A stretch of DNA of 64,000 nt, taken from NCBI RefSeq assembly GCF_009834535.1, contig NC_045696.1, forward strand, positions 89,034,001 through 89,098,000, given 5' to 3'. Within the stretch, counting starts at the first letter, position 1, and each line of letters opens with the position of its first letter. Made by a program: the position numbers and the translations under genes. The notes under the pieces were generated by a model. That model searched no databases and had not been told where the DNA came from. It worked only from the letters and a program-made list of their open reading frames with translations. This document shows, piece after piece, positions 11,801 to 51,742 of this stretch. This stretch comes from Camelus ferus. Its lineage: Eukaryota.

Positions 11801-14800
11801 TTAACCTACTTTTAGAATTTTAAAGGGTTTTAAAATCCCACAGCATATATACTAGTCATTTAGAGAAAAAAATTCAATCTATTAATTGAAAATTGGATAC
11901 AGTACATTTAAAATGTCAGTTTTATAGTATGTTACATATCAATAAAGCTGCTTTAACCAAAAAACATCTTGACTGTAAGTTTGTATATGCTGACCTCTTC
12001 TTCGGAGATTTCAACAACAACTGATGAACCCATCCTTCCTTTCATTACTTTGCTTCCACCGCCAGTCATTGTCCCTAGAGAACAGAGGAGAGAAGTGAGA
12101 CTTAGATGCCTCTCCCAACAAGATTAAATAAACTCAATGGCAGAGGAAAAACCATTACCTGACTGTTCTATGATCTGCCCCTGTAATGTTACCACTCTCC
12201 ATCTTCTGTCTTTCTGATAAGCTACTCTTGTGGCTTGATCTAAGTTGTCAGCTACTAAGGTATCCCGTAAAGCAAAGTAAAATGCTTGGTGAATTTTCTC
12301 ATCTTTTACTTTTACTAAATCAAATAACCGAGGTGTATTTTCAGGAGTTTGAATTCTGGTCATTTTCTTTGCCCACACTGCCATCTAAAAGTTAAAATTA
12401 AAAAAAATTAAAAAAAAGTAAAAAAATAAAAATAAAAAATGTATAAAGAATATATCATTTCTTTTAGGTATCATTTATAGAATACATATGTATTAAACAT
12501 AAGGACATGTATATAAGGTTCTGAATATCTACATAATTTAGTATTACTTTACTTTTATTTTAAAAAAATTATGAAACTATTCACAGATGGCATGATCATA
12601 TATGTATGATATATATATCTACAAATCCTGAGGAATTCACACAAAAAACTATTGAAACTATTATGAATTCAGCAAAATTGCAGAATACAAGATCAATATG
12701 CAAAAATTACTTGTATTTCTATACACTAGGCAATAAATAATCTGAAACTAAGATTAAGAAAATTCCATTTATAATATATTAAAAAAAAAAACCCAAACAA
12801 AAAACAGGACACTCTTGACATTAAAGAAGAAAAGCAAAAGACTCTTGATTTCAAAGCTTACTACAAAGCTACAGTAATCGAGACTGTGGTACCAGTGCAA
12901 GGACAGACATACAGATAAATGCAGAGTCCAGAAATAAACTCTTACATTTATGGTCAGCTGACTTTTGACAAGGGGCACCAAGAAAATTCAATGGGGAGAG
13001 AATACAAATGGTGCTGGAACAACCAGATATCCACATGCAAAGAGTAGAGCTGGACCTCTACATTGTATCATAAAATTAACTTAACACAGATTAAAAGCCT
13101 AAATGTAAAACCCTAAGCTGTAAAAATCTTAAAGCAGGAGGTAAATCACTGCGTCACTGGATTACATAGTAGTTTCTAAGATATGACACCCAAAACACAA
13201 GCAACTAAAATAAATAGGACTTTTATCAAAATTAATTTTGTGCTTCAGAGGACACCATCAAGAATGTGAAAAGACAACCCACAGAATGGGAGAAAATATT
13301 TGCAAATCATGTATCTGACGAGACCTGTATCCAGAATAACAGAGAACTCTTACAACTCAACAGTAAGACAAATCAATTGGGAAAATGGGCAAAGGATCTG
13401 AATAGATATTTTTCCAAAGATAAAAGGCCAATAAATAAGCACATGAAAAGTTGTTCAATTTCATTAGTCATCAGGAAATGCAAATCAAAACCACAATTAG
13501 ATACCATATCACATCAAGTAAGATGGCTATAATCAAAACGATGTACAATAACAAGTGCTGGTGGGGATATGAAGCACATAGAACCCTCATAGACTGCAAG
13601 TAGGAAATGGTACAGCCACTGTGGAAAAGTTTAGCAGTTTCTCAGAAAATTAAACAGTTAACATGTGACCCATAATTCCACTCCCTAGGTACAAAAAAGT
13701 GAAAACATGTCTGCAGAAAAACTTGTGTATGTGAATGTTTACGGTAGCATTATCCATAACCAAAACATGGAAAACAACTCAAATGTCCATCAATTGATGA
13801 ATGAACAAAATGTGCTACATCATATAACAGAATAACATTCTGCAATAAAAAAAGAAATGCTGATACAACATGGATGAATTTTTGAAAACTAAGTCAAAGA
13901 AGACATACATAAAAACCTACATATTATATGATTCCACTTATATGAAATGTCCAGAATAGGTAAATCTACAGAGACAAAAAGTAGATTAGAGGTTGCAGGG
14001 TGATGGGGAGTAGAAGTAGGAATACTGACTGCTAAAGAATATGAAGTTCCTTTTTTTGAGGTGATGAAAGTATTCTGGAATTAGACAGTGGTCATGACTG
14101 AACAATCCTCTGAATGTACTAAAACCCAATGAATTGTATACTTTAATATAATGAATTTTATGGTTGTGAATTATATCTCAGTAAATGGTTCTTTTTTTTC
14201 CCCCCATAAACTACATTTATTAGAGAGGCTTATTGTTTAATAATCTTTGGGCATATTTATAAAATAAGACAATCACTGCCACTGCAGCTTTAATTTAATA
14301 GACAGCAGAAAAACTAGAGACACTTAGCCACATGAAATACAAATGAAAAACAGGTCTCGATAAAATTTGTTCCAAACATTAAGAATATAAAGATATTAGC
14401 ATCACCTCACACCAGTCAGAATGGCCATGATTAAAAAAATCCACAAACGACAAATGCTGGAGAGGATGTGGAGAAAAGGGAACTCCCTGAACACTACTGG
14501 TGGGAATGTAGTAACCGTGGGAAATGCATTCATTTTGGAAAACAGTATGGAGAGTCCTTAAAAAACTAAAAATAGACTTACCATATGATCCAGCAATCCT
14601 ACTCCTGGACATATATCTGGAGGGAACTCTAATTCGAAAAGATACATGCACCCCAATGTTCATAGCAGCACTATTTATGATAGGCAAGACATGAAAACAA
14701 CCGAAATGTCCATTGACAGATAACTGGATAAAGAAGTTGTTGTATATTTATACAATGGAATACTACTCAGTCATAAAAAATGCCATTTACAGCAACATAG

Positions 14801-14881
14801 GTGGACCTGGAGACTGTCATTCTAAGTGAAGCCCGAAAGAGAAAGAAAAATACCATTTGATATCACTCATATGTGGAATCT

Positions 14882-14913
<32 letters not shown>

Positions 14914-17900
14914 GAAATGAACTTATTTTCAAAACAGAAACAGAATCACAGACATAGAAAACAAACTTATGGTTACCAGTGGGGAAACGGGGTGGTAAAG
15001 GATAAATTGGGAGTTCAAGATTTGCAGATACTAACTACTATATATAAAATAGATAAACAAGTTTCTTCTGTATAGCACAGGGAACTAAATTCAATTATCT
15101 TGTAGTAACCTATAATGAAAAAGAACATGAAAACAAATATATGTGTATGTATGACTGAAACAATATGCTGTACGCCAGAAATTGATACATCATTGTAAAC
15201 TGGCAATACTACAATTATATGAATAAATAAATTTTAAAAAATTAGCATTTCAAAATTTACCCTGGTTGTGGAGAAACAGTCATATTCATTACATTTTTGT
15301 GTGTATGTTACTCAGTGGCATATATTCTAAATTTTGGGACAAGGTTAAGGGCATGCATAAGTCTACCAAAGAGAATTAGAAACAAAACCAAAAACCAAAA
15401 TAAAGTATACACTTCCAGCTTTTTAAATGAGGCTACATGATTGCACAGGAACCAAAAGTTTTTACTCACTGAAGTCAGCATGACTTTGGGTATACCTTAC
15501 TAGATCTTTAGCACTCCTATTTCAAAGGCAAATTTATTACACTACCACTGAAAGGACTTAATCACTTTTCTTTTGTGGAGGAGTCTAGGTTTTGTATAAA
15601 GTGTTATGAAAGTATACTAGTGATTGATGTCAAGCAGAATGTGAGTTAGGATTATTGCTGTTTTCCATGTTAGGAAGTTTATAAGAGAATTATCTATTAA
15701 ATTAGTAGATTAGGCGTAGAAAATTCATTCCTATACTTCATGTGAGGTTTTGTCACATGCCATTACATGCCAAGAAAAGTTTATACATAATGCTAAAGAA
15801 AATAACTTATGGTCTATTGATATTGTTATTGATTTGAAGAGTTGTCAAATTTTTTTTTAATTTTGTTTTTTACTGAAGTGTAGTTGATTTACAATGTTAG
15901 TTTCAGGTGTACAGCAAAGTGATTCAGTTATACACATACATACTATATATACCTATTTTTCAGATTCTTTTCCATTATATGTTATTACAAGAAATTGAAT
16001 ATACCTACTGTGAACAGACCTACTGTGCTGAAACTGAACAGACCTACTGTGCTGTATAGGTCTTTGTTGTTTACCTATTTTATATATAGTAATATGTATC
16101 TGTTAATCCCAAACTCCTAATTTATTCCTCCCCTGCCCTTTCCCCTTTGGTAACCATAGTTTGTTTTCTATGTCTCTGAGTCTGTTTTTGGTTTGTAAAT
16201 AAAATTTGTATCATTTTTTTTTTAGATTCCACATATAAGTAGTATCATATATTTGTCTTTGACTTACTTCACTTAATATGATAATCTCTAGGTCCATCCA
16301 TGTTGCAGCAAATGGCATTATTTCATTCTATTTTATGGCTCAGTAGTATTCCACTGCATATACATACTGTATCTTTACCCAGTCATCTGTAGATGGACAT
16401 TTAGATTGTCTCCATGTTCTGGCTGTTGTAAGTAGTGCTGCTATGAACACTGGGGTGCATTTATCTTTTCAAATTAGTTTTCTCTGGATATATGCCCAGG
16501 AGTGGGATTGCTGGATCATACAGTAAGTCTATTTTAAGTTTAAGAAACCTCCATCATTCCCACTAATAGTGCAAGAGGGTTCCCTTTTTCCCACATCCTC
16601 TCCAGCATTTATCGTTTGTATACTTCTAAATGATGGCTATTCTCACTGGTGTGAGCTGATACCTCTTTGTAGTTTTCATTTGCATTCCTCTAATAATTAG
16701 CATCTTTTCATGTACCTGTTGGCCATTTGTATGTCTTCACTGGAGAAATGTCTATATAGGTCATCTGCCCATTTTTTTGACTGGGTTGTTTATTTTTTGA
16801 TATTAAGCTGTATGAGCTATTTGTATGTTTTGGAAATTAGTCCCTTGTCAGTCGCATCATTTGCTAATATTTTCTCACTCTGTAGGTTGTCTTTTCATTT
16901 TGTTTATGGTTTCCTTTGCTGTGCAAAGGCATTTAAGTTTAGTTAGGCCCCACTCATTTATTTTTGCTTTTATTTTCATTACTCTAGGAACTGGTTCAAA
17001 ATAAATATTGCTGTGATTTATGTCAGAGTGTTCTGCCTATGTTTTCCTCTACGAGTTTTATAGTATCCAGTCCTACATTTAGGTCTTTAATCCACTTTGA
17101 GTTTATTTTTGTATATGATGTTAGAGATCTTTTTTTTAAGTAGTTATTGATGCTGGAAGTTAGAAATGCAAACTACCAGTCACTCTAACGCTGGAATCTA
17201 TATTCCTTTACAGAAGGCAGTACAAGGTTTTTTTTCCCCACAACCATGTGACCCCAGAACCTAACATAATCTTCAAAACCTATCAAATGCTCACTTAAAT
17301 AACTGAAGAAAAAGCTAGGATTCAAAATCAAAAAACACTTAAAAACTAAATTACAAGTAGATTATCAATACCCACCTTATCCAAACCTATAAAGGTTGCA
17401 ACTCCAATATTGTGTCTTTTAAGGAAGTTTACACATTCTTGGGCTGTATCAATAGAATCAACAACAATGTGGTCTAATGCATGACAACAGGATGAAATTG
17501 CAACATCGTATTTTTCATCAATTGCTCCTAAGTCCCCCTAATAATTAAGAGAAGGGGGAAAGAAATCAACACACAATCAGCAAGGGAATTAGGCACAGGA
17601 TCATTTTATTACTATACATATAGACTTTTAAAGTTGTGTTTAATTGAAGAACTGTACCTACATATGGTTTTAAGAAGTACAAAAAGGGAACACAGTGAAA
17701 AATTTAAGTGTTCCTCACATTTAACCTTCCCCTTCTGCAGAGGCAATCACTACTAGCTTCTTTTAATCTACCTTTTAAAAAAGTTTATGGATATACAGTT
17801 TAAGTTTTTAATAAGCACAAAATGAGAGAATTGTTTTTACTGCATATGTATGAAAACATATAATGTGAAGATTTGAAACTCAAAAGTACTATAAAAATAA

Positions 17901-37695: not shown

Positions 37696-40600
37696 GTAAA
37701 TCTCTTTACCTCTGAAGAGGTGAGAAAAGGATTTGGAAGTTGTGGCCATTACTTGATCCACGTTCCCTGCTTTGAGGGTGTGTGCAGCGTGGAGAATCAG
37801 TTACTTTCCTTCTCCCTGGCAGCAGTGGGACTCTGGACGTAGCTTTTGGGATGCGAAGGCAGCCTTGGGTTTGGAGGCAGTAAAGGGACAACAAGGAGGA
37901 GACAAGACCTGGATTGGTGAATGATCGTGTAGTGAATAGCAAAATAATAATTTCGAGTTATTGGTGTTAGGTCAGTAGTGTCACTAGTGAAAGGAGGTTT
38001 CAGGCTTTTAAAATCATTTGGCTGAAAGACTCCGTAATGGAAGCTATGTCATCTGGTTATGGGAAAATTATCAATCAGCAAATATTTCTTAAGTAGCTTT
38101 GTATACATTGCACTGTGTCAGGCATAATCAAGACTATTCAGCAAGTATTCCTGTTCTCAGAGAATTTAGTTTTGTTTGTAGGTTTTTAACTAGGAGTTTG
38201 TGGATCTGCTGGTAGGTGATTAGACTTCAGAGACGTTCATACCATCTCTTCACTAACCCTCTGCCCCCGGAATTGTATGAAAAATTCTGTGTGCCTGGGA
38301 ATTTTTCTGGGGAGTTAGTTTTCCTAGAACTTTGATCAGATTCTTAAACGTGGTCCTGACCCCCACAGTGTTAGCCACTGGTTGATTTGACTAACCCAAT
38401 AAGCATTTATTCAGCGACTCTTAAGTACTTGACATTGAGAATGGGGAGCCTCTTTCCCTCTTTTAATTTTTGCATTTTTAGGGCCTGGCATAATAAAACG
38501 CTAATCTGCTTTTTGAACGAACTTACATTACCATTCTAAATAAGTAAGTATGATTTGTGCCCTGAGGAGCATATTCAAGTTCCATGATTCTCAAAAACAG
38601 GTGTGGTGGACACTCCCTCCAAGTGTAAGAATTTGCTGAGGTTGAGAGACTGATGTGGTTTGAGTGAACATTGACTCGATATTACAATATACCTATATAT
38701 TTGAAAAAAATTATTGTTTTTGTAAGATAAACTACAGACAATAAAGCTCAATGAAAAAATTGGCCGGTATGTGTACCAAGAAAATGTAGCAATTCTCTTT
38801 GACAGCATCTGGAATCTTTTGGATTTTCGAAGTCTGTAAAACACTACTAAATCTGAGTTGAAAAGATATTAACGATGAAAAAAAGCAAAGACTAGACCAA
38901 ATTGAGTGGTGTATGTGGAGGACAGAGCACGATTTAGTAGAAAGATATAGCAGATAACAGAATCCCAAATCCTATCATTTTTTAGCCACATGCTTGGACT
39001 ATTTACTCAAGTGATCAATCTCTGAGAGTGTTTATTATAAAACCAGTATATAATACCTACCACATAAGATTGTTTATGATTGTTTGTCTAGCACACACAC
39101 TACAAGCATTTGATATTGCTGTGTTTATGACATTGACCTTATTAGGGTATATGCTGAGGATGACTAATGGGATGTCAAATTTGGAAGAAGGTTAGCTTAT
39201 CAAGAGTCTTGAAAGCTATATAAAGGATGATAGATATGATACGTTTTCAAAATATTAGAAAAATTTTGAGCTAAGGAATGACTTGGTAAACAAACAAAAA
39301 TCCAGTAGTTTTGTAGGATGTGTTAAAAGGGAAGAGATTAATCAGACATGGCTTTGATTATTATTGTACAGTCCTTCATGTGGAAGGTGACAAGTGCCTA
39401 TGCAGTAGAATGGAAAAAATCTGGACACGTTTGGGGTGGAGATCTACAGCTTTTGCAGATTTTAATGGCTAAAAGTCTAAGCCCTTAAAGTCAGTCAGCT
39501 TCTATTCTTTATGAATCCTTGGATTAGTGATGAGGGGATAGGAAGAAAATAAGTCACAAATAAATCCTAGCTTTACTGCCTTTGATGATTGCTGTAAATA
39601 ATGATAGGTCATAATGACTGATGAGAAAGAAATGTAATTTCAATAAATCAATAAAGTGACTGATAGCTTTAGATTTAGCTGAACCTAAACATGCTCCACA
39701 CAGGACAAATATTTTTTCAAATGAGCTTAAACCAGGTTGTATAATGTATAAAAGACATCCATAACAAACTGCTGCAGAGGAGACTTAAATCCAGAGTGAA
39801 AGTAGGGCACTCAGAATAAGTGGAGAAGTGATTTGAGAAAAGATTAGGGTCATAAGAGATAAAGACTTGATTGATCCCTGCCAATACTTTGGATAAAAAG
39901 AAGCTGGTCCAATTGGGATGGACTAGGTTACAATCATCTTGGAAAGTATAACCAAGTCTCATCTTTCTGGTCCAAAATCATCTACTAACAACCATTATTT
40001 TTATTTTCAGGCAGTCTGAGAAGAGAACCCTCACTTTTTATATTTTAAAAAACTGTACCCCACAGGAAGAAATAATAAGTTCAAAGAGAGAAATTGGAAA
40101 TAGAATTAAAATGCCATGTTTGCACTTCTTGAAGTGCATAGTTAAATTTTGTCATCATTATAATATGTTTTTTGTCTGCCTTCTAATGTGGTTACAGAAT
40201 TTCATTAAGTCTGAAATTAATTTGTAGGTAAATGTTTAAAAATATTAATCAAGTTTGTAATTTTAAATATTTGGATTAGTTAGATATTAATAAATCAAGA
40301 TGAATAAATACATATGCCTTTGTATAAGTAATGTATAAATACTTAGAGAATATTGTTCAAGATGAATAAATTAGATGTAGACACAGGACAGATAGTTTTG
40401 AATATTTTTCTTGATAATATAAGCCCCCTAGTACACCAATCTTGTTGAAATTCTCATCTACCTTAACAGAAAAAAAGGGAAGTGAGGAAGTAGAACAATT
40501 TTGGGAGATTGACTGTTTTGAAAAATGAGTTTGTTTTTATTCATATAGTTTGAGATTAGGAAAGATATATACAGTGGGTAGCAGAGGTAGAGAATATTGT

Positions 40601-40747
40601 CAGGAGAGAAAATAGGATGAGATGGAGTTACAAGAATAGTTGGAATACTAAAAATAGATTAGATTTTTAAGGTTGTGAATAAAGAGAGGATAGCAACAGA
40701 GAATGTCCATTCTTAGACTCTAGGAAGAAGAAGTAATTATAGACTTG

Positions 40748-41239
40748 AGTCTCAGGACTCTAGATTACAGGCGACAGAAAACCCAATTTAAATTGTCTTG
40801 AGAAAAGAAAAGAATTAGCTTCCATAACCAAAGAGTTAGTTGAGTATAACTGGACTCAGTGTTTAAACAAAGACACCAAGATTTGGTTTCTTTCTTTGCT
40901 CTGCTTTGCATTTCCTTCTCTTGGCATTATTCTCAGGTTCCACATAGTGGCCCTGGCACCACCAGTCTCTCCCCTTGCTGTGGTAAGATAGCTACAGTAA
41001 CTCCAGCCTCAAATCTTCTAAAATTAAAGACCTCAGGGTGACTCTTTCTTTCCCATCTTCTGGTTGAATAAAAGTTTCTGTTGGAATGCTATAATTGTTT
41101 TAAGTCTGGGTCTCATGCTGGCTCCATTCAAGCCATTTGGGCTAAAAGTGAGGAAGTGGGTGTTCCAAGGAGAAATTCTTTGTAGCTAGGGAAAGAGTGA
41201 ATACATGCAGAATGATAAAAACACCAATTTTCACTACAA
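40748..41239. mobile_element. Degraded MaLR (MLT1-like) LTR
   Basis: GACAGAAAACCCAATTTAAA near the start and CACTACA at the end, as in old MLT1 LTRs. Confidence 0.45.
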
Positions 41240-41899
41240 ATAGCTAACAGTTACTAAGTAATTACTATGTTTCAGGCATTCTACTGGACATTTGTAAGAT
41301 GTCTTTTTTAGATCTCATGTGTACTTTATCTCATTTAATTATCATAACTAACCTGTGAAGTAGGCATTATTAACTCCATTTTATATACAGAAGAAAACAA
41401 AGTACAGTACTTGAAAGATCACAAGGTGAGAGTTTCAATAAGATGGGTCAAATGCAGTAGAAACTGGAAAGAGAATGACAATGGTGATCTTATAAAAAAG
41501 TAACATTTATTAGGGTGTTTTTAAGTGCAGAAATGCGTAAAGAAGAAAGCAAAATTGGGCCATAATGCTATCACTCAGGTAATCTCATTTTAAAAATATA
41601 GAGATAAAGAAAATATTATGAACATGGTAAAAACTTCAATCAGAAACAAATAAAATGAGAGTTAAAATCTTCCTTTTCATCCTAGTGTCTCTACCCTCAC
41701 AAAGATCTTCATTAAGTGTCTTGCATATCTTCCAAGAAAAATGTTTTAGTATTCACTAGCTTAAATGTATATCCTCCCCCCACTTTTTCTTACAAAGGGG
41801 ATTGAGTTATATAATACTGCTGTACACTTTACTTTGGTCATTTAATGGATTATAAGCATCTTTCTGTATCAGTACATATAGATTCACCTCATTTTTTTT

Positions 41900-42008
41900 T
41901 AAGATAAGGATTTTATTTTTAAACAATTTTTTTTAAATGGTGGTATTGGGAATTGAACCCAGGACTTCACACGCTAAGTGTGTGCTTACCACTGAGCTAT
42001 ACAGCCCC
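41900..42008 (-). mobile_element. tRNA-derived SINE (Vic-1-like)
   Basis: Same head in reverse; TSD-like CACCTCATTTTT/CACCGCATTTTT flanks. Confidence 0.8.
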
Positions 42009-42879
42009 CACCGCATTTTTTTAATAGTTGCACTGCACTCTAGTTTATCAGTTGAGTATGATTTTTCTATGCTAGTTGATAAAATAGAAGAATGAATTAA
42101 AGATGACTACTTATTTTTAAATTTGTGAATCTTGTGGTTTATTGGCTGGAATTTATTAGGCCAGCCTGCAAAAAGATTATAAATATAAGCCAATAAGAAT
42201 AATATTAAAGTATAATTGGCAAGATCTGGAAATGTAAATAACACTGCATGAACACACACTTTAGAAAATGCATACAGAAATTGCAGTGTGGTGGGGGTTG
42301 GAGGTCTTTAGTAATTGAACTGTACTGCCATTTGCACACCTGTTTCCTTTGCTTGCTATGTTTTTTAATCTGTCCCTGGAAATGGTGAGCCTGCCTCTGC
42401 CTTCTGCCATATAAGAGATCTCATCGAGTTTTCAAGTGGTTCTATGATGGGACCAATCTGAGTAAAAGATCTGCCCCTGTCTCTCTCCTTTCTTTACTGG
42501 GAAAGAGACACAGGAGTCTGATTAGAGCTACTTAGGGGACTGTTGATAAAAATTGTACTTTTAAAAATAGAGCCTTTTGTAGTCATCAGCAAACCGTTCA
42601 TTTCACCTGTTAATATCAACACCCCAGGGCTAGCCAATATGCAAATGACCCAAACAGAACTTGGTATAAATGCACTTATGATCTAGCTCTTGAATTTCTT
42701 GTCTCTCCTTCACATTCTTGTTCACCACTGAGGCTTTCTGCTGCCTCTTATCTATACACATTCTTGTTGACAAGTCAAACCTTCCCTCTTTTCCTCCCAG
42801 GATTTTTCACATTTTGTTAGTGCTTTTTTCCTTTTAGTTTTGTTTCTTAAATCTAATTTTTGTCTTTTTTTGTAAACCA

Positions 42880-43150
42880 TCTTAACCACGTTTGGGTGTA
42901 TAGTTCAGTATAGTTCAACGGTATTGAGTAAATTCATATTGTTGTGCTACTATCACCTCTGAACTCTTTTCACCCTGCGGAACTGAAACTCTGTACCCAT
43001 TAAACAATAACTCCCCAATCCTCCTTCCCCCAATCTCAGGCAACCAGCATTCTACTTTTTGTGTCTATGAATTTGACTAGATACTTGATATAAGGGGAAT
43101 CATACAGTATCTGTCCCTTTGTGACTAGTTTATTTCATTTAACATAACGT
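42880..43150 (-). mobile_element. L1 3'UTR fragment in antisense
   Basis: AACTGAAACTCTGTACCCATTAAACAATAACTCCCC motif typical of L1MA/MB 3' ends. Confidence 0.75.
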
Positions 43151-44227
43151 TAAGTCTAATTCTTAATTCTTAATCCTATTTTCTTGGTTCTAATTCTGTT
43201 TCACATTGTAAACATGTATCTGCAACATGAGAGTGAAATTATGATGAATATTTAAATTTCTAGTTTTTGATAGTATTCTATCAAGTTCTGAAATAAACAG
43301 GCTTGTATAGTTTGTATATGTATCTTAGTGTACATTTACATGTATATAACAAATTCCTATGACTAGGAATTCTTCCCAGGGTAGATTCTTTATATAACAC
43401 CTCCTTTGAGTCAGTAGCTTCTAAATCAGAATATGCACAGATGTGTCAGATTGGCAGAGCCTAGGTAATTTGCCTGTGTCCTAGCTCTAAGGAGGGCTAG
43501 AGAGGAAATAATTTGTTTTTTATTTATAAGGTAGGAAATTCCCCCAAAGTAGAAAAGGTAGTTAGAAGTGTTGGGGTGGGGGTAGGGGGAAAAGAATAAA
43601 TGACCATTAGCACCAGTTTTCCTGCCCTTTAGTAATGTATGCGGGTATCTGTTTCTCTGTATGCCAGGATTGGGTTCTGGGTATTTTGCATTTGGCCACT
43701 CTGACAACAAAAAAATGGTATCTAGCTGTTTTATGTTTCATTTCTTTAATTATAATTGAGGCTGTGCATTACTTCATGCTTTTGATTGCCCACTGACCAT
43801 CTGTATTTATGCTTGTGTGAATGGTCAATCTATGTGTTTAAAAATAGAACGACCCCTTTATCAGTGCCCTTGATCAAATGACTTCATAGGGGCCCATGCT
43901 GGCTTACATTAGCTTCTGTTTCTGTAGTATTGCCAATCTATTCCTTTTCACTGGTTCCTTCTCCTTTGCCACCAAACATATTGAGGTCTACCCTAGTTTA
44001 AAAGGCATTCATAATTACTATTCTACTTCTTGCTCTAACCTCTACACTGATAATACCTTTATATATAAACTTATATACCTTTATCTTCTTCACTTATGAG
44101 CTCTGCCTGATGACTACAGTTTTTCACCATTTATTCATTGGACAAATATTTACTGAACACCTACTGTATGCAAGGATGTTTCTAGTTGCAGGGGATATAG
44201 GAGCAAACAAAACAGACAGAAATTCTG

Positions 44228-45822
44228 AGGTCTCCAGTATGGTACTTGCCAGCACAATGTCCTCGTGGTGGAGCAAGCTCCCAAAGATGGCTGCTGCCAA
44301 TATCTGTGTACTCAGGGGGAGTTCCCGTTGCCTTCTGCCTCTCTGGGAGACTCTCCAAGATCAGAAGGATACCACAGTCTTCATTGTAACCTCATGGTGG
44401 TATCCCAGGATAGAACTGTGCAATCACAGTTTTCTGCTGAGGGCCACTTGGATGGTCAGGCCTTCCTGTGCTGTGACTGTGAGACAGGCAGGGCAGAGCC
44501 CTGGGGGCTATGGGCAGAAGTAGTCCTAGGAGCAGAGACATGGGACACACAGTCCAAGGACTTGACGAAGAATGGGAAGGGCCTCAGAAAATTTCAGGTA
44601 GAAATCACGGCCCTGCAGGAGGAGAAAGGAGGCTTGCATTCTCCCCAGAAGATTCAGGGCTGTGAGATCCAAGAAGACAACCATGCCAGGGGCTTCAGTT
44701 GTTTCTAATATTTTCCTCTCCTATCACCCAAAGACCTATGGATGGGAAATGCCCTGGTCTTTGACTTGGACCTGGACTATGGAAATAGAGAAGTCCCAGG
44801 ACATAGATGGCTTTAAAAGGAAGGATTACTGGGTCTGTGTGCAGGGAGAGCTTTGTGGAAGACTGCAGAAATATCTGGAATCCTAAATGGGCTTCACAGA
44901 GAGAATAGTGCCCCCAGCAGTGAACATGGCCAGCAGCATGGCCTTGGAGGGCATGGTCACCCTGACAGCTTCTCTCCTCAGAGTATCTCACTGGCCTGGA
45001 TTCAGGATGAGAAACTCCTAAGCAGGGTGTCCAGAAATCTGGGGGTGTCCTGCCTGTTGGGAATGGGACCTACAAGACCTGAGTGGCCTTAAGGGTTCCC
45101 CAAGGTTCATGTGCTATGTGGAACACAGTGAAAATCCGAGTGCACACCCTGTGCCCTCTGGAAAGACTCTGGTGCAACAGAGTTAATGGCTGATCATTTT
45201 GGATGTTCCTGCTGTGGTTTCTTGTCATAATCATTATGCTTTGTGTCCTTTGGTACAAGAAGAAAAAGACAACATGGGCTGTGGAGAGCCCAAAGCCTGT
45301 TGGCCTACAAGACCCTGGTCAACTCCAGACACTCCAACAGATCATAATGGCCTCACACAACTGGGTTTTTGGTCTCTGTTGTCAGACCCTGGGTCCATTG
45401 ATTCAACTGAGGGAGCATAAAATCTGCAGCCATGAGGTCTGAACTCAACTCTCTACTCTGGTCTTGAATAGTATTTTCCCTCATGATGCTTCAGTTTCCT
45501 CATCTATGAAATGGGAAAAATAATATTTGCTTCCACTTATAGTTGGGATGATTAAAATGGTAATATATATGAAGTGCTTGCAGCTGTACCACACTAGTTA
45601 TTAACATTATTTTTGTTATTTTATATTATAATATATTACATGGATGATAATTAGGATTAATAATCAATAAGCTTTATCTGTAAGTGTCCTTGTAGCCACT
45701 TCTGAGGAGTCTAATAGAGTTTTGGTTCTCTTCACCCCCATCACACTTATATATGCATGATTTCATGTCCACAGTATCTGCATAATTCCATATAATAAGT
45801 TTTAAATGCTCTTTAAAGAAAA
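44228..45822 (+). pseudogene. Processed pseudogene of an MHC class I chain-related (MICA/MICB-like) gene; coding remnant 44368-45420
   Basis: Contiguous alpha1 (YHSLHCNLMVVSQDRTVQSQFSAEGHLDGQAFL), alpha2 (GLHSPQKIQGCEIQEDN; GELCGRLQKYLES), alpha3 (VPPAVN; ISLAWIQDE; CYVEHS), TM and tail (TQLGFWSLLSDPGSIDSTEGA*) with no introns; stops at 44706 and 44884 plus frameshifts; A-tract ~45815-45826; TSD-like flanks. Confidence 0.92.
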
Positions 45823-46149
45823 AAAATGGATAAAAATCTGTACTCATGGAGCTTACATTTTAGAAAGGGGCAGTAGTAAGTAAAATACTATGACAGATGG
45901 CCTTGAATAGGATACACCGGCAAGGCTTTACTGAGAGGGTGACTTTTGCGCAAAAAGATGAAGGAAGGAAGAAAGGAGTAAGCCATACAGCTATCTGGGG
46001 TCACGGATTCCAGGCAGAGAGCATGGGTACAAAGGCTCTGAGGCAAGAGCATGATTAGTATGTAAGAAGGAAAAAAAGAGGCTAGTGTGGCTGAAGCAGT
46101 GAGTGAAAAAAAGAGAGGCAACAGGAGATGAGGTCAGAGGAATGATGGG

Positions 46150-46470
46150 CATATCAGGGCTCTCCAGAGAAAGAAGAGTTGATGTTGAAATCTTTAGTCT
46201 TAAGGCTGGAAACTGATGGCAAAATTTCTGTATTGTAGTCAGATGGCAGAAGTCCTTCTTTGGAAAATCTTGGTCTTTGCTCTTAAGACCTTCAACTGGT
46301 TGGACAAGGCCCACCCACATGATGCAGGGTAATTGCTTTATTTAAGTCAACTGATTGTAAATGTCAGTCACCTCTAAAAAATACATTTATAGCAACATTC
46401 AGACTCATGTTTGCCCAAATAACTGGGCGTCATCGTGTAGCCAAATTGACACAAAAAATTAACCATCACA
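46150..46470 (-). mobile_element. MLT2-like (ERVL) solo LTR
   Basis: Minus strand begins TGTGATGGTTAATTTTTTGTGTCAATTTGGCT and ends TTTCTCTGGAGAGCCCTGATA. Confidence 0.8.
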
Positions 46471-48349
46471 GTAAGAGTCCAGATCAATAAAAGCTTTGAA
46501 CACCACTGTAAGACCTTTGTTTTAACTCTGAGATAGGAAGCCATTGGAGAGTTTTGAGTGGATAAGCACCATGACCTATTTTAAAAGTCATTTTGGCTGC
46601 TGTGGTGAGCACAGATTGTGAGGGGTTAGAGGCCAATAAGGAGGCTATTGTAATTCAGGTTAACAGATGATGGCACCTTGGACTGGGTCATAGCATTGGT
46701 GTCGTGAAATTCAGATATTTTGAAGATAGAGCATACAGATTTTGTTTTTTACTAATTGTGTTTACGATGTGAGAGAAGAGTTGGTGATGATTCCAATGTT
46801 TTTGACCTGTGCAACTGGAAGAGTGGAATTGCCATTTACTGAGATGGTTAAGGCTGTGGGAGAAGGAAAGTTGGAGGAAAGATTAGGGGTTTGATTTGAA
46901 TCTTCAGTTTGAGATGTCAGACATTCAAATAGATTTGTCAAATAATCAGATATAAAAATTGGGTTCAGTGGAGAGGTCTGAACTGGAGATATGAAATTGG
47001 GGGTTGTCACTGGGTAGTCACTATATTTAAATTTATATTAAGCCATGAAACTGGGTGAGATGACCATGGCAGTGAGTATAGATACAGAAGAGGTACAAGG
47101 ACTGAGCTCACAGTTTAAGGTTGGGGAAATTAGGAGAAAAGGTTGGAGATGTTTATTCCCTCTATAACTCTACAATTCCTTTCCCTCCATAAACTGCCTA
47201 CTGAAATAAATCCTAACAGCCTCGTTAGCAGGATTGTAAAGGAAATCCCATAGAGTTACATGTACTCCTAGCAAGATTGCCCTTCTCTCTTACAAAACTG
47301 CATCAGCACTACAAACCACCTAAGAGAGCAGTTCTAGGAGGAAGGCTACAATTTAAGTTGATTATCTGCTTTCCTTTATCCAACCATTGGGACTATTACA
47401 TCATACCTTACATCCCTGTTTACCTCAGTCTCCACATTCAAGACTTTTCATTCCCTGCATTAGTTCATTATTAGACTTAGCTGTTGATGACAGTAACTTA
47501 AACATGATAAAACTTTATTCTCTATTACTTAAAAAGCTAAATAGATGGTACAGGACTGATAGGACTCTCCACAAGTTCCTTCTATCTTGTTGTCATGTTA
47601 TATACGGTCTTGATGGCATGGTGGGGAGAGTACTATTCTTATTTTCCAAGTTATGCTGATTTATATAACTTTTATAAGAGATAATAAATTGGCTTTTGTA
47701 AGAGGTAACTCATTTACTTTTCACAATTCCACTGTGGGTAACCATTACTGGTGGGCAGTGTTATCTACCCACCCTTCAAGTATAAATCCCAGATTGGGCT
47801 ACTAGGTTGATGATGATGTAATATCCCCATGTAGGTTTAAGAATTGTTAATGCCCTGCATGGCCACACCTAGTTTTGAGGGCAATTGGGGAACATAATCT
47901 TTATTCTAAGTGGCCAGGTATGCAGCAAAAATTCAGATTCTTCTACTGGAGAAATAGGGATGAATGAGTATTTGAGGACAGCTGGCTGTTCTTACCATTT
48001 CCCACCATCTGTCCCAAACTCTTAGCTCTTCCCCATCTAAATCCTACAACTCTGCCTTTTGGAGCTCATAGTTTGTCATTGCCCAGATCTGTGTTCTCAC
48101 CCTTTACTGTGAATGATCTCTTTAACTTCACAGTCTAACTTAAATCTGGTTTCTTCTAAGGAAACAGCTCGCCCCATGGCCTTCTCAAGTGGACCAGGCT
48201 ATTTTGCATTCCAGACACCAATGTGTGGGCTTGCTTCTCATTAGTGTTTCTGGACAACTGATTGTCTTTTCCTTTCCTCTCTAAAATCCTCTAGTCCGTT
48301 TGAGACGTGTCCTCCGAGATCAAACCTTTTTGCAGTTAGTCAGCCACAG

Positions 48350-49400
48350 ATCTGATATTTTTCCTCATTCAGTGAATGGTATTTTAGCACCTGGGTAACT
48401 GTGTCTATCTCCACCACTATTCTTATCATTATTCTCAGTGATTTAACATCCTTGACTCAATCAATTCCATTCCCTGGCCTCTCAGTTCCTTGACCTCAGC
48501 CACTCATTTTCATAGTCTTATATATCTATATTTGCTCCCAAAATTTGTTTTAAACATCTCATTGTCTGTATATCCCTACCTGTTTTTCCCTGGTTACTTC
48601 CTCTAGAATTTAAGTGCTGACAGTTCAGTTCAGTAGGACTTCTAGGCTGTTGAAGCTACCACCTTTTCAAGTTCTGCTGGGTAGTCTCATCTTACCCCAT
48701 GGCTTCGAATATGATCTTTGGGCTGACAGCCCTCAAATTGATATCTCAATGGTATCTCCAGGTCTGACCTCTCCCTTGACTCCAGATTTGTATATCCAAT
48801 TTCTCCTTGAATTCTCTGTTTGGATGTCTAGTAGGCATCTTAAACTTAGCATGCCCCAAGCAGAATTTTTAAATCATCTCTTCCAACTTGTTCCTCCCTT
48901 AGTCTTCATTTCAGTAAATGGCAACTCTGTTCTACCTGTTGAAACTTTAGAGTCATTTTTGACTCCTCTTTCTCTTAACCCCAATTTATCAACAAATCCT
49001 GTGGGATCTTCTTTCAAGATATGAATATATTCTGAATAGAATATGACCACTTTATATCATTTTACCACTGCTACCTTCCTCATCCACCCACTTTCACTCC
49101 TCTTCTGGATTACTGAACCTAGCTGGCCTCCCTGCTTCCAGTCTTGCTCATTCTTGCTCTTTTTTTTTCTTTCACCCATACTGACACTTTAAAATGTGAG
49201 TCAGATCATATCACTCCTTTGCTCATAACTCTTCACTGGCTTCTCTGTTCATTCAAGAGGAAAACTGGTATCATTCAAAAGAAAGAAATGATTCTTTTAT
49301 TGTGGTTTTCCAAACCTCTACGGGATTTTGTGTCACTTTTCTTCCCCAATTTCTTGCTACTCCCTCCACTTACCTTGTATTAACCATACTGGCCTTCATG
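48350..49400 (+). mobile_element. L2 LINE fragments
   Basis: L2-like motifs (TGGATGTCTAGTAGGCATCTTAAACTTAGCATG; TCAGATCATATCACTCC). Confidence 0.65.
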
Positions 49401-51742
49401 ATCTGACTTAGCCTTAGAAGCATTACTGGCTGCTATATTTAGAAGAATTTGAAGGGGTATGTGTAAGAGCAGAAAGATCGGTTCTGGGGTCACTGTAATA
49501 ATTGAGACAGAGAATGATGGTGGCTTAGAACTATGATGCGGGTGCTGAGGAGTGGCCAGATTTGGAATATATTTTGGTAGCTTGGTAATCAGGATTTCCT
49601 GGGCACATTTTTTCCTCTTAAGCCTCATAAATGTTGACCTACACTGGACCAAAGATAGTTCAAAGATAATTTATAAATGATTTTTAGTAGCAAAGGCATA
49701 GTTCCTCCTGTCTGCTCTCTAATTATCCACCCCCCCCAACCCCATTTACCACTGGCTAGTCAGATCCTTGATGACCAATGCCTTTGGGCAGATAAAAATG
49801 CCTCAATGTAGTGCTCAGGCAGCTCTGCAATTCCCCTAAATGGCTGTGCTCTAATACTACTTTCCCCTTGTTCCTTTATTCAGTCTCATATCAGAATGCA
49901 CATATCATTCATGCAGATGATCTCAGCTAAATAGGGTGTATGGGGAAGATCTTTCTGAGCAAGGGAGAATCATTCCAGTGCTAGGATGCCACTCTCTTTC
50001 TCTGATCCTTTACACCATGTTTCTGAATAGTTGATTCCTTTCTCATAAAAACCATACTGCCTTTACTTATTTATATAGTATTAAGATTTCTTTTGGTAAG
50101 GAATTATTCCTAATTATGGATTTCTGCAGTTTGAAGTGTTGTTGGTTGGAACAGAGAAAGCTTTATTGCAATGCTAAGCAAGGAGAACAGGTGTGTGGCT
50201 CGTGCTCAAATATCTCGAATTCCAGATGTGTTTTGAAATAGGCTACATTATGACTTTGCCAAAGATCTTCAAAGTTTCTGGTTGTAATTTTATATATATT
50301 TTCTTGTCTATTGTGTTGTTTCTCATTTTCAGAATGAACAATTTATCTGTCTATTCTTTTGAAATCCTTATAAGCTGAATTGCTACTTGAATTATTGTGA
50401 AAAAGTAGCATTTTGTAAATATTTTTACCTTTCCCCTCCTCTAATTGAAGGAGGTCTGATGGAAGGGAGAACAAGTTATGAAAAAGGTGCTGAAATTCCT
50501 AGGAATTAAAAGTGAGCCTTGGAAATAGCCTGGGAGAGATTATCTTCTTGCTCTGCCTGCTATACACTGATTCATACTTTTGAATTTGAACATAAATCTC
50601 CTTAAGTCATCTGGAGAAGAGAGAAGGTTTTTGACCCTAATCGCATATTAACTAGACAGAAACTTTTTTCCTGTAGTCTTAACAATTTCCCCCCAGTCTC
50701 ACAAATTTAGGAGTAGAATAAGTGAAAAAGGTGTTTTGAAATACAGCTGTGTTTAGCACCTTGCTAATCTAAAAGTCTTCCTAGATTCGGAGGAATGAGA
50801 AATTATCGAAGGTAGGCCCACTGAGTTCTTATCTACACTCAGTACCTCCTTTGATGTAGTTAACAGTAATTTTCTACCTGGTGAAAAGCATTTTTTTCCT
50901 TTAACCACACTTTCATTTAATTTTTTTTTTCTTTTTAGTTAGTGATGTTTCTCAGAAAGAATCCAAAACTGTAAATTGGATTGCGATAATTTAGCATTTC
51001 CTTAATTTGTGTATTTTGATAGCATGGTTATTGCGGGAGTGTTACTCTTCTTCCCAGTTTTTATTTGGCAATTACATTGTGATTTTTATATAACTTTTAT
51101 AATGGATTTATTACCTCTTTCTTAAATAACGCACTTATTTTTCACATTGCCACTGTGGAAACCATAATTGTTGGGCAGTGTATCTACCCCAAACAGAATG
51201 TAAATCTCAGATTGGATCACTAGATTGATGATGTCATAATATTGCTATGTGGGTTCTATAATTAAGGCCTGCAAAAATGTATCGTAGCCCTTCATCAGAC
51301 CTTCAGAATTATTTTAATGTATATCCATTCAACAGCACCAACACTGATCTGCCATTGAAGGGTACCTATTTTAAAGAATCTTCTGATTTGTCCTCAGGAT
51401 GGCCTTTGAAATTACTTACCTGACCAGATTCAGTGGTGTTCTGCACTTGCAGGAATATTTTAGGCAGGTTGTGAGGACCTCTGGAATCCAACTCAAGGTC
51501 TCCAATCATCTGTTGGCAGAATTAGCACACTCTGAGTAGTTTTCTTCCTCTTTGCATATGCTTGCTGTTAGGAAGATTGAAGGTGCTTCAGTGTCTTTGC
51601 GGTGCTAAGATGTTTTGTTTGCTTTTATTTTTTTTGTGTTCATGTTTTGTTTTTAATGCAGATTCTATATTTCCCTCCCAACTTTTATTTTACAGTGAAT
51701 ACAATCAAGTGGCATCTAAAAATTTTGCTGAAAAGTGGAGAC

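Follow-up and report, generated by a model that had tools for sequence, protein, structure and literature searches.

An antisense L1 5'UTR exon at the head of a camel MIC retrocopy and its recurrence at a common splice donor

The window analysed here (the whole stretch of 64,000 nt of Camelus ferus DNA, contig NC_045696.1, positions 89,034,001 to 89,098,000) carries an intronless MIC copy in which the signal-peptide exon is replaced by 140 nt of other origin. This raises the question of where these 140 nt, hereafter the leader, come from and how they were joined to MIC exon 2. The initial annotation of this DNA had interpreted the copy as a transcript driven from an L1 antisense promoter, spliced into MIC and retroposed. 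This interpretation is supported by the present analysis, in which the L1 identity, the donor and the acceptor were confirmed.

The retrocopy and its L1-derived first exon

The following features were delimited (window coordinates).

37696 to 51742, plus strand: host-gene interval with the insertion, 5' intron region of a WD40 gene lying head to head with an SMC gene (donor 37695, coding start 51743)
44205 to 44227, plus strand: left copy of a degenerate target-site duplication, matching the right copy in 17 of 24 columns; its final G may also be L1's own base
44228 to 44367, plus strand: antisense L1 5'UTR exon (about L1 nt 635-496) of subfamily B, up to the family splice donor; 87% against the B consensus, with L1 homology between -142 and +1 relative to the donor
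44233 to 44243, plus strand: first YY1-like motif, with an ATG at 44239 that lies 129 nt before the donor in the copy (130 in the family) owing to a 1-nt deletion near 44255
44281 to 44291, plus strand: second YY1-like motif (from sequence, the label being our assumption), its ATG out of frame
44368 to 44631, plus strand: MIC exon 2 (alpha1) from the acceptor base, retaining a codon missing in camelid, hippo, whale and ruminant MICs
44632 to 44908, plus strand: MIC exon 3 (alpha2), with an 11-nt deletion after 44706
44909 to 45160, plus strand: MIC exon 4 (alpha3), with deletions of 13, 1 and 13 nt
45161 to 45292, plus strand: MIC exon 5 (transmembrane)
45293 to 45818, plus strand: MIC exon 6 and 3'UTR, with AATAAG at 45794; the exon 6 start is aligned to the parent and the comparison stops before the far 3'UTR
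45819 to 45840, plus strand: short A tract and right copy of the target-site duplication

From 44368 onward the window reads as an MHC class I alpha1-2 region (Pfam MHC_I, E 2e-10), and MICB/MICA are the top solved-structure matches of the post-junction frame (E 1e-34). Compared with the intron-bearing MIC gene of the same assembly, exons 2-6 are fused, 611 of 790 aligned bases are identical over exons 2-4, and the reading frame is broken by the deletions of 11, 13, 1 and 13 nt. Homology, intron loss and a disabled frame are those of a processed pseudogene, which is itself dead and very old. Its 3' end shows an 8-A tract followed by the degenerate target-site duplication, in which the matching columns are obtained with gaps and the ungapped score falls within the null. 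The neighbouring SMC gene encodes SMC_N and SMC_hinge domains on the minus strand and the host gene gave weak WD40 matches, below the Pfam cut-off; we take them to be SMC4 and IFT80, respectively. The insertion target is presumably an L2 element, and in an empty-site reconstruction no repeat match spanning the site was obtained. An inverted repeat pair of about 800 nt with 69% identity (14401-15199 and 15888-16660) was also noticed inside the SMC gene.

The leader strings quoted in the initial annotation and the junction placed at 44367/44368 are both present in the sequence, and its reading that the 140 nt encode no hydrophobic signal peptide is borne out by hydropathy. The best 11-residue values in the three frames are 0.57-1.44, far below the 2.45 of exon 1 of the MIC gene and the 2.34-2.75 of five other MIC leaders. 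A replacement signal peptide was considered and rejected as too polar; the best-kept L1 copy gives 1.71. A comparison with the genuine MIC leader and the 3' end of intron 1, a match to which would have spoken against the annotation, gave a score of 24 against exon 1 plus 300 nt upstream (shuffle maximum 31) and of 20 against the last 300 nt of intron 1 (maximum 29). A true MIC 5'UTR, exon 1 or unspliced intron 1 was therefore rejected for want of a match.

The leader is repetitive, with 443 candidates in the 2.09-Gb assembly; 40 were scored and 39 of them are non-self, at 78-84% identity. Upstream of leader-like copies, an ORF1 (Pfam Tnp_22_dsRBD) was found on the opposite strand in two of three frames tested, and the typical L1 5' end, with the CCAAGATGGC motif, lies about 495 nt downstream of the donor. 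These positions identify the leader as about L1 nt 635-496 read backwards, in agreement with the L1-antisense resemblance from which the annotation had started. The annotation had also expected a GT donor directly after the matching segment, and the two bases following the donor point in the 29 L1 copies fetched are GT in 20, AT in 5 and other in 4 (counted, like the comparison with subfamily B, from 44229, one base short of the leader). The leader groups with the 12-copy L1 subfamily B (support 82/96, rough), from whose consensus it differs by 19 substitutions and one deletion over 140 columns. The subfamily B donor, CAG/GTGGGT, is the top GT site listed for the B consensus (9.5 versus 9.3 for the next, with an approximate donor matrix). 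An argument built on a competing donor further upstream was abandoned, that site being absent from subfamily B.

Two side observations concern the same region of L1. In the consensus of subfamily D (L073-L088), the youngest sampled, the donor reads GC, not GT. Three L1 5'UTR pieces (L091:1-90, L094 and L022) start at or just inside the leader and run unspliced through to the L1 5' end; the DNA preceding them is, we assume, another part of L1, and they are possibly internally deleted or sense-spliced L1s.

On the MIC side, DNA and protein searches found a single intron-bearing gene, at G000:C20:20545112-20552000. A hydrophobic leader is encoded in its exon 1, an intron 1 of 3672 nt follows, and exon 2 starts, in phase 1, at cccag/GATTGCACAG (cccag/GATTG). 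The same base opens the MIC part of the copy, so that the join to the phase-1 first base of exon 2 is exact, as had been annotated, and the gene has an intact AG acceptor there. The copy thus shares two features with L1 antisense-promoter chimeras, a first exon made of the antisense strand of an L1 5'UTR and a splice from an L1 donor to a host acceptor. The join is very probably the product of splicing of some kind. The 'leaderless isoform' of the initial annotation fits the RNA, from which the leader exon would have been skipped; a corresponding protein is hypothetical. In today's MIC gene, the transmembrane stretch encoded by exon 5 is closed by an in-frame stop (L034, C20 about 20550660-20550740), so that its product would be without a cytoplasmic tail; the camelid protein P0011 terminates at the same place.

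Other insertions that leave L1 at the same donor

A donor pattern designed to favour continuations outside L1 gave 65 matches in the genome, of which L060-L063 and L064 were fetched and the other 59 were judged from the 13 bases shown. Five of the 65 leave L1 at the donor, namely the MIC copy, L060, L061, L062 and L063; L064 was rejected as a chimera, being plain L1 on fetching. An exact pattern for a non-L1 continuation gave 6 matches, all judged to be L1 from the bases shown. Among 59 copies obtained by other routes (10 of the 15 subfamily C copies among these were picked for continuing in L1), 10 break before the L1 5' end, and two of these 10, L017 and L085, do so at most 3 nt from the donor (p about 0.01). 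The loci are the following.

L060, G000:C15:54676724-54677290, minus strand: antisense L1 exon (best subfamily D) joined at the donor to some 420 nt of single-copy DNA, with an A tail; parent C6:85633411-85633830
L061:488-875, G000:C18:17720487-17720875: 5'-shortened antisense L1 exon joined at the donor to an old repeat
L062:432-1100, G000:C5:87378730-87379400: antisense L1 exon, then three or more non-L1 segments; parent exons at C15:38660341 and C15:38649313
L063, G000:C3:37264455-37264737, minus strand: 285-nt insertion made of an antisense L1 exon and a 150-nt exon; parent C8:48753698-48753845
L085:57-580, G000:C14:19823680-19824200: subfamily D antisense exon and single-copy sequence; parent C6:28475991-28476349
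L017:1501-1750, G000:C2:73979848 upward: L1 homology stops at the donor, with a longer 5' part

At least five further loci thus leave L1 at the same donor, and L017 is a possible sixth. The tails of L060, L062, L063 and L085 match one other locus each, at 74%, 81-86%, 79% and 79% identity, respectively, and no Pfam family scored above its curated cut-off in the tails of L060-L062 and L085. In L060 the A tail begins where the homology to the parent stops. In L062 two segments correspond to exons 11 kb apart with canonical AG/GT borders and the intron removed; for its first non-L1 exon no parent location was found. L085 has one extra base at the donor and was met, unselected, among 15 copies of a younger subfamily. 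The tail of L061 is presumably an old L1 3' repeat. Target-site duplications exceed the null only for L061 (13/14 positions, a score reached by 3 of 60 null trials) and weakly for L063 (13/15 positions where homology stops, reached by 9 of 60). The parental acceptors of L060 and L063 read TCG and CAA, not AG but one step away from it, and the L063 parent has a long pyrimidine tract at the join, ending in this CAA.

Since the pattern search was designed to find breaks at this very spot, and L017 has no unique parent among 40 of 94 scored candidates, one could suppose that the MIC copy is as described and that the other loci are ordinary 5'-truncated or deleted L1s ending by chance near the donor. 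Such a coincidence is very improbable, for single-copy parents begin at the join, introns have been removed, A tails and target-site duplications are present, and the 5' ends cluster without having been selected by the pattern. L017 itself may be a chimera or a truncated L1.

Relative to the donor, L1 homology starts at -142 in the MIC copy, -140 in L062, -149 in L060 and L063, -165 in L085, -98 in L061 and -238 in L017. Four of the seven 5' ends therefore fall 140-149 nt before the donor, just upstream of the YY1-like motif, and this clustering is not a search artefact because the pattern did not select for the start position. This candidate YY1 motif beside the 5' ends resembles the one at L1's own sense start. 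Independent insertions with the same donor and nearly the same start favour a promoter over chance. The leader could also have been an internal exon of a MIC transcript started at the normal promoter, the retrocopy being 5'-truncated near the exon start. Such exonisation is unlikely: AG dinucleotides do lie 3-9 nt upstream of the leader start, but the pyrimidine tract of an acceptor is absent (pyrimidine fraction 0.32-0.53), which argues against an internal exon, a recognisable host exon precedes the leader in none of the seven copies, and the seven starts lie several bases apart rather than at one common acceptor. Antisense L1 exonisation is nevertheless a known confounder according to the accessible part of PMC4908685. 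The clustered 5' ends and the missing pyrimidine tract are indirect signs of a putative transcription start inside L1.

The source L1, the proposed route and the age of the copy

The initial annotation expected a donor-bearing L1 near the MIC gene and took its absence as favouring a template switch. None was found in intron 1 or in the 61.5 kb upstream of exon 2 (C20:20487401-20552056), which formally goes against its reading. Template switching, RNA ligation or a DNA-level deletion at the CAG/G common to donor and acceptor would indeed need no neighbouring L1, and would suit the two parental acceptors, of L060 and L063, that are not intact. We nevertheless give this explanation very little weight, for the L1 piece is antisense to L1 mRNA, the same donor break occurs in 6-7 loci, and the MIC side is base-exact with all later introns gone. 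As the join is exact on both sides and recurrent, the absence of the source L1 does not rescue template switching. An L1 antisense-promoter chimera has its source L1 upstream of the host exon, and none was found in the 61.5 kb upstream of today's exon 2; this lowers the case that the copy is a member of that class, not the case that it works like one.

The 61.5-kb interval contains POU-homeodomain, PHD, HCR and SPR1 genes, through which a farther source would have to be read, so that loss of the source is the likelier case. The POU-homeodomain gene, presumably POU5F1, stands head to head with MIC, and some 17 kb separate its CpG-rich start from MIC exon 1 (interval C20:20523900-20545112); the locus is open in pluripotent cells. 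On the POU side of the MIC gene no class I domain was matched among the long frames scanned. The L1 piece in intron 1 (L054:8450-10000) is a 3' fragment that includes an inversion.

For L060, L062 and L063, the roughly 9.4 kb upstream of the parent likewise gave no source L1 5'UTR, and among the top 40 leader matches none lies near the L063 or L060 parent. A full-length antisense L1 about 560 nt upstream of the L062-parent exon (L067:900-3500) was rejected as the source because its 5'UTR is different; this element is CpG-rich and apparently young. That a source L1 lies near none of the four parents examined would suit trans-splicing, by which antisense L1 RNAs made elsewhere would give their first exon to unrelated pre-mRNAs, no L1 ever having stood beside MIC. 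This search covered just those 9.4 kb for three of the parents, however, and loss is easily explained, young full-length L1s being commonly lost or never fixed and the MIC copy branching outside the living artiodactyl MICs. Efficient trans-splicing is, to our knowledge, not established in mammals, and we regard this route as improbable.

The reading that we prefer, and consider the probable one, combines an antisense promoter, cis-splicing and germline retroposition, with later loss of the source. A then-young full-length L1 would have stood antisense in intron 1, or just upstream, of the ancestral MIC gene. The antisense-strand promoter of its 5'UTR would have started transcription about 140-150 nt before the strong GT donor, just upstream of the YY1-like motif, and splicing of that donor to MIC exon 2 would have skipped the signal-peptide exon. 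Fully spliced and polyadenylated, the chimeric RNA would then have been retroposed into an intron on C1 by the L1 machinery of germline or early embryonic cells, and the insertion would have decayed there. Either the source L1 or a MIC paralogue carrying it would later have been lost or never fixed. The same route may have given at least five other insertions from related L1 subfamilies. A backwards-firing L1 promoter was apparently active in the germline of this lineage, a situation already established in primates.

Expression in the germline or early embryo is deduced solely from the fact that the copy was inherited. In one DNA and three RNA runs compared with the well-preserved L1 copy L002, no pile-up of starts or ends was seen (contigs cannot show starts and the raw run has 18 reads), nor any loose ends at the donor among the rows listed, 1127 further rows existing. 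Three runs recorded as RNA contain 0.53-0.78 of the copy's words; as the copy sits in a host intron and the runs were not aligned to it, this word content does not speak for expression. Among metagenome contigs, the pattern matched 597 times without a confirmed relative of the copy.

In a protein tree of 16 MIC rows, camelid, hippo, whale and ruminant MICs form a clade excluding the copy (97/97), and the copy is its sister at 83/68, while the MIC gene of this assembly groups with that of the alpaca (100/100). A one-residue deletion is common to all seven MICs of the clade and is lacking from the copy and the eight other rows. The tree leaves open a grouping of the copy with camelids (p-AU 0.12) or with perissodactyls (p-AU 0.25). 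At four-fold sites the copy differs from today's gene at 14 of 73 (JC 0.22, pairwise). With an assumed neutral rate, the event would be roughly 50-70 Myr old, or later if the parent was a paralogue since lost. This divergence, taken with that of the leader from the B consensus, suggests that the source L1 was young when copied. The parent need not be today's gene; it may have been a gene of the stem lineage or a paralogue that has since disappeared. The copy appears to preserve a MIC lineage older than or separate from the living camel, hippo, whale and ruminant MIC genes.

The antisense frame and comparison with known systems

The ATG of the first YY1-like motif lies exactly 130 nt before the donor in 17 of the 29 copies (one of them, L023, mis-oriented in this count) and, in a separate count, in 10 of 15 subfamily A and 6 of 12 subfamily B copies. 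Among the consensuses, the ATG precedes the donor by 130 nt in A and B and by 124 nt in D, both phase 1 and in frame with MIC exon 2, whereas in C it does so by 128 nt, a 2-nt shift that puts it out of frame. The ATG of the MIC copy itself, one base having been lost, is now out of frame. Read without splicing, this frame runs for 127 codons in A and B, once CpGs are restored in the consensuses, and for 79 in D; a second antisense frame is likewise open for more than 100 codons. An ATG-initiated antisense frame with an internal donor, as in ORF0, is thus found in the A, B and D consensuses and not in C. No selection on this frame was detected between consensuses (pN/pS 0.64-0.79, versus 0.59-0.92 and 0.57-1.26 in other frames). 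No annotated fusion protein was found: five proteins continue in the unspliced frame only, and the peptide occurs in none of the 127 proteins of the MIC search. The protein P0001 matched no Pfam family. The ATG could simply come with the YY1-like motif, and an ORF0-like arrangement in these L1s is put forward as a possibility, not as a finding. We entertain, as a doubtful extension, that stem L1s of artiodactyls, perhaps of laurasiatherians, had a working ORF0-like unit independent of that of primates, which would comprise a start fixed by the YY1-like site, a strong ATG, a frame of about 127 codons and a phase-1 donor. Such a unit could have yielded translated germline L1-host fusions over tens of Myr, a signal-less MIC fusion among them, of which the retrocopies would be a datable genome-wide record.

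What is new here is the set of at least five further donor-break loci, four with single-copy parents and one with canonical introns removed. The single pseudogene is of modest interest; a recurring class of fossils in a non-primate L1 lineage is the interesting part. The literature searched, as far as its accessible text goes (supplements and subscription papers may list such cases), gave no account of retroposed antisense-L1 chimeras or of this copy, and copies of this kind go unmentioned in the accessible parts of a retrocopy review (PMC5408686) and of a camel MHC synopsis (PMC6829570). The value of the copy lies in evidence, for it locates a donor and a probable antisense start region within the 5'UTR of a non-primate L1, both of which would have persisted through several L1 subfamilies. 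A donor-break search could serve as a cheap readout of past germline antisense-promoter activity in any mammalian assembly. One could then test whether primates acquired antisense promoters and ORF0-like frames by accident or whether these are a recurring part of L1 biology.

Among known systems, MICA and MICB, the NKG2D ligands, share with the copy the alpha1-alpha3, transmembrane and tail exons, and processed pseudogenes share its removed introns; unlike MICA/MICB, the copy has its signal-peptide exon replaced by L1, a broken frame and a position outside the MHC. The SpIREs are described, in the part of PMC5860796 that is accessible, as sense-strand, L1-to-L1 spliced integrated retrotransposed elements. 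Like our copies, they are remnants of spliced L1 5'UTR RNA left in the genome, use one donor repeatedly and have target-site duplications and A tails; the difference is that the present splices are antisense, from L1 to host. For ORF0, presented as primate-specific in the accessible text of PMC5203782, the likeness to the ORF0-exon fusions lies in an antisense ATG near the start, an open 5'UTR frame and an internal donor that would bring MIC exon 2 into frame. Unlike ORF0, the putative camelid-lineage frame has a pN/pS like that of control frames and is shifted by 2 nt in subfamily C. Antisense activity of non-primate L1s, as proposed here, has precedents in the pig, where one L1D2 5'UTR was weakly antisense-active in a reporter (PMC6501411, restated in PMC10362595), and in the mouse, with an ORF1 antisense promoter cited in PMC6501411; in its accessible part, that paper maps no start site or donor and reports no retroposed chimeras. 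The closest comparison is with human L1 antisense-promoter chimeras, which according to the accessible part of PMC4908685 begin no farther than about 600 nt from the L1 5' end and typically skip the first coding exon, and with YY1, which sets the sense start in human L1 in the portion of PMC7778262 available. The present copies differ in having a camelid-lineage 5'UTR, known here from retroposed fossils of subfamilies 12-18% off consensus, the source element and the RNA not having been found. They are like the human chimeras of both papers in the antisense 5'UTR start, the sense splice into a downstream exon, the omission of the first coding exon and the YY1 site near the start.
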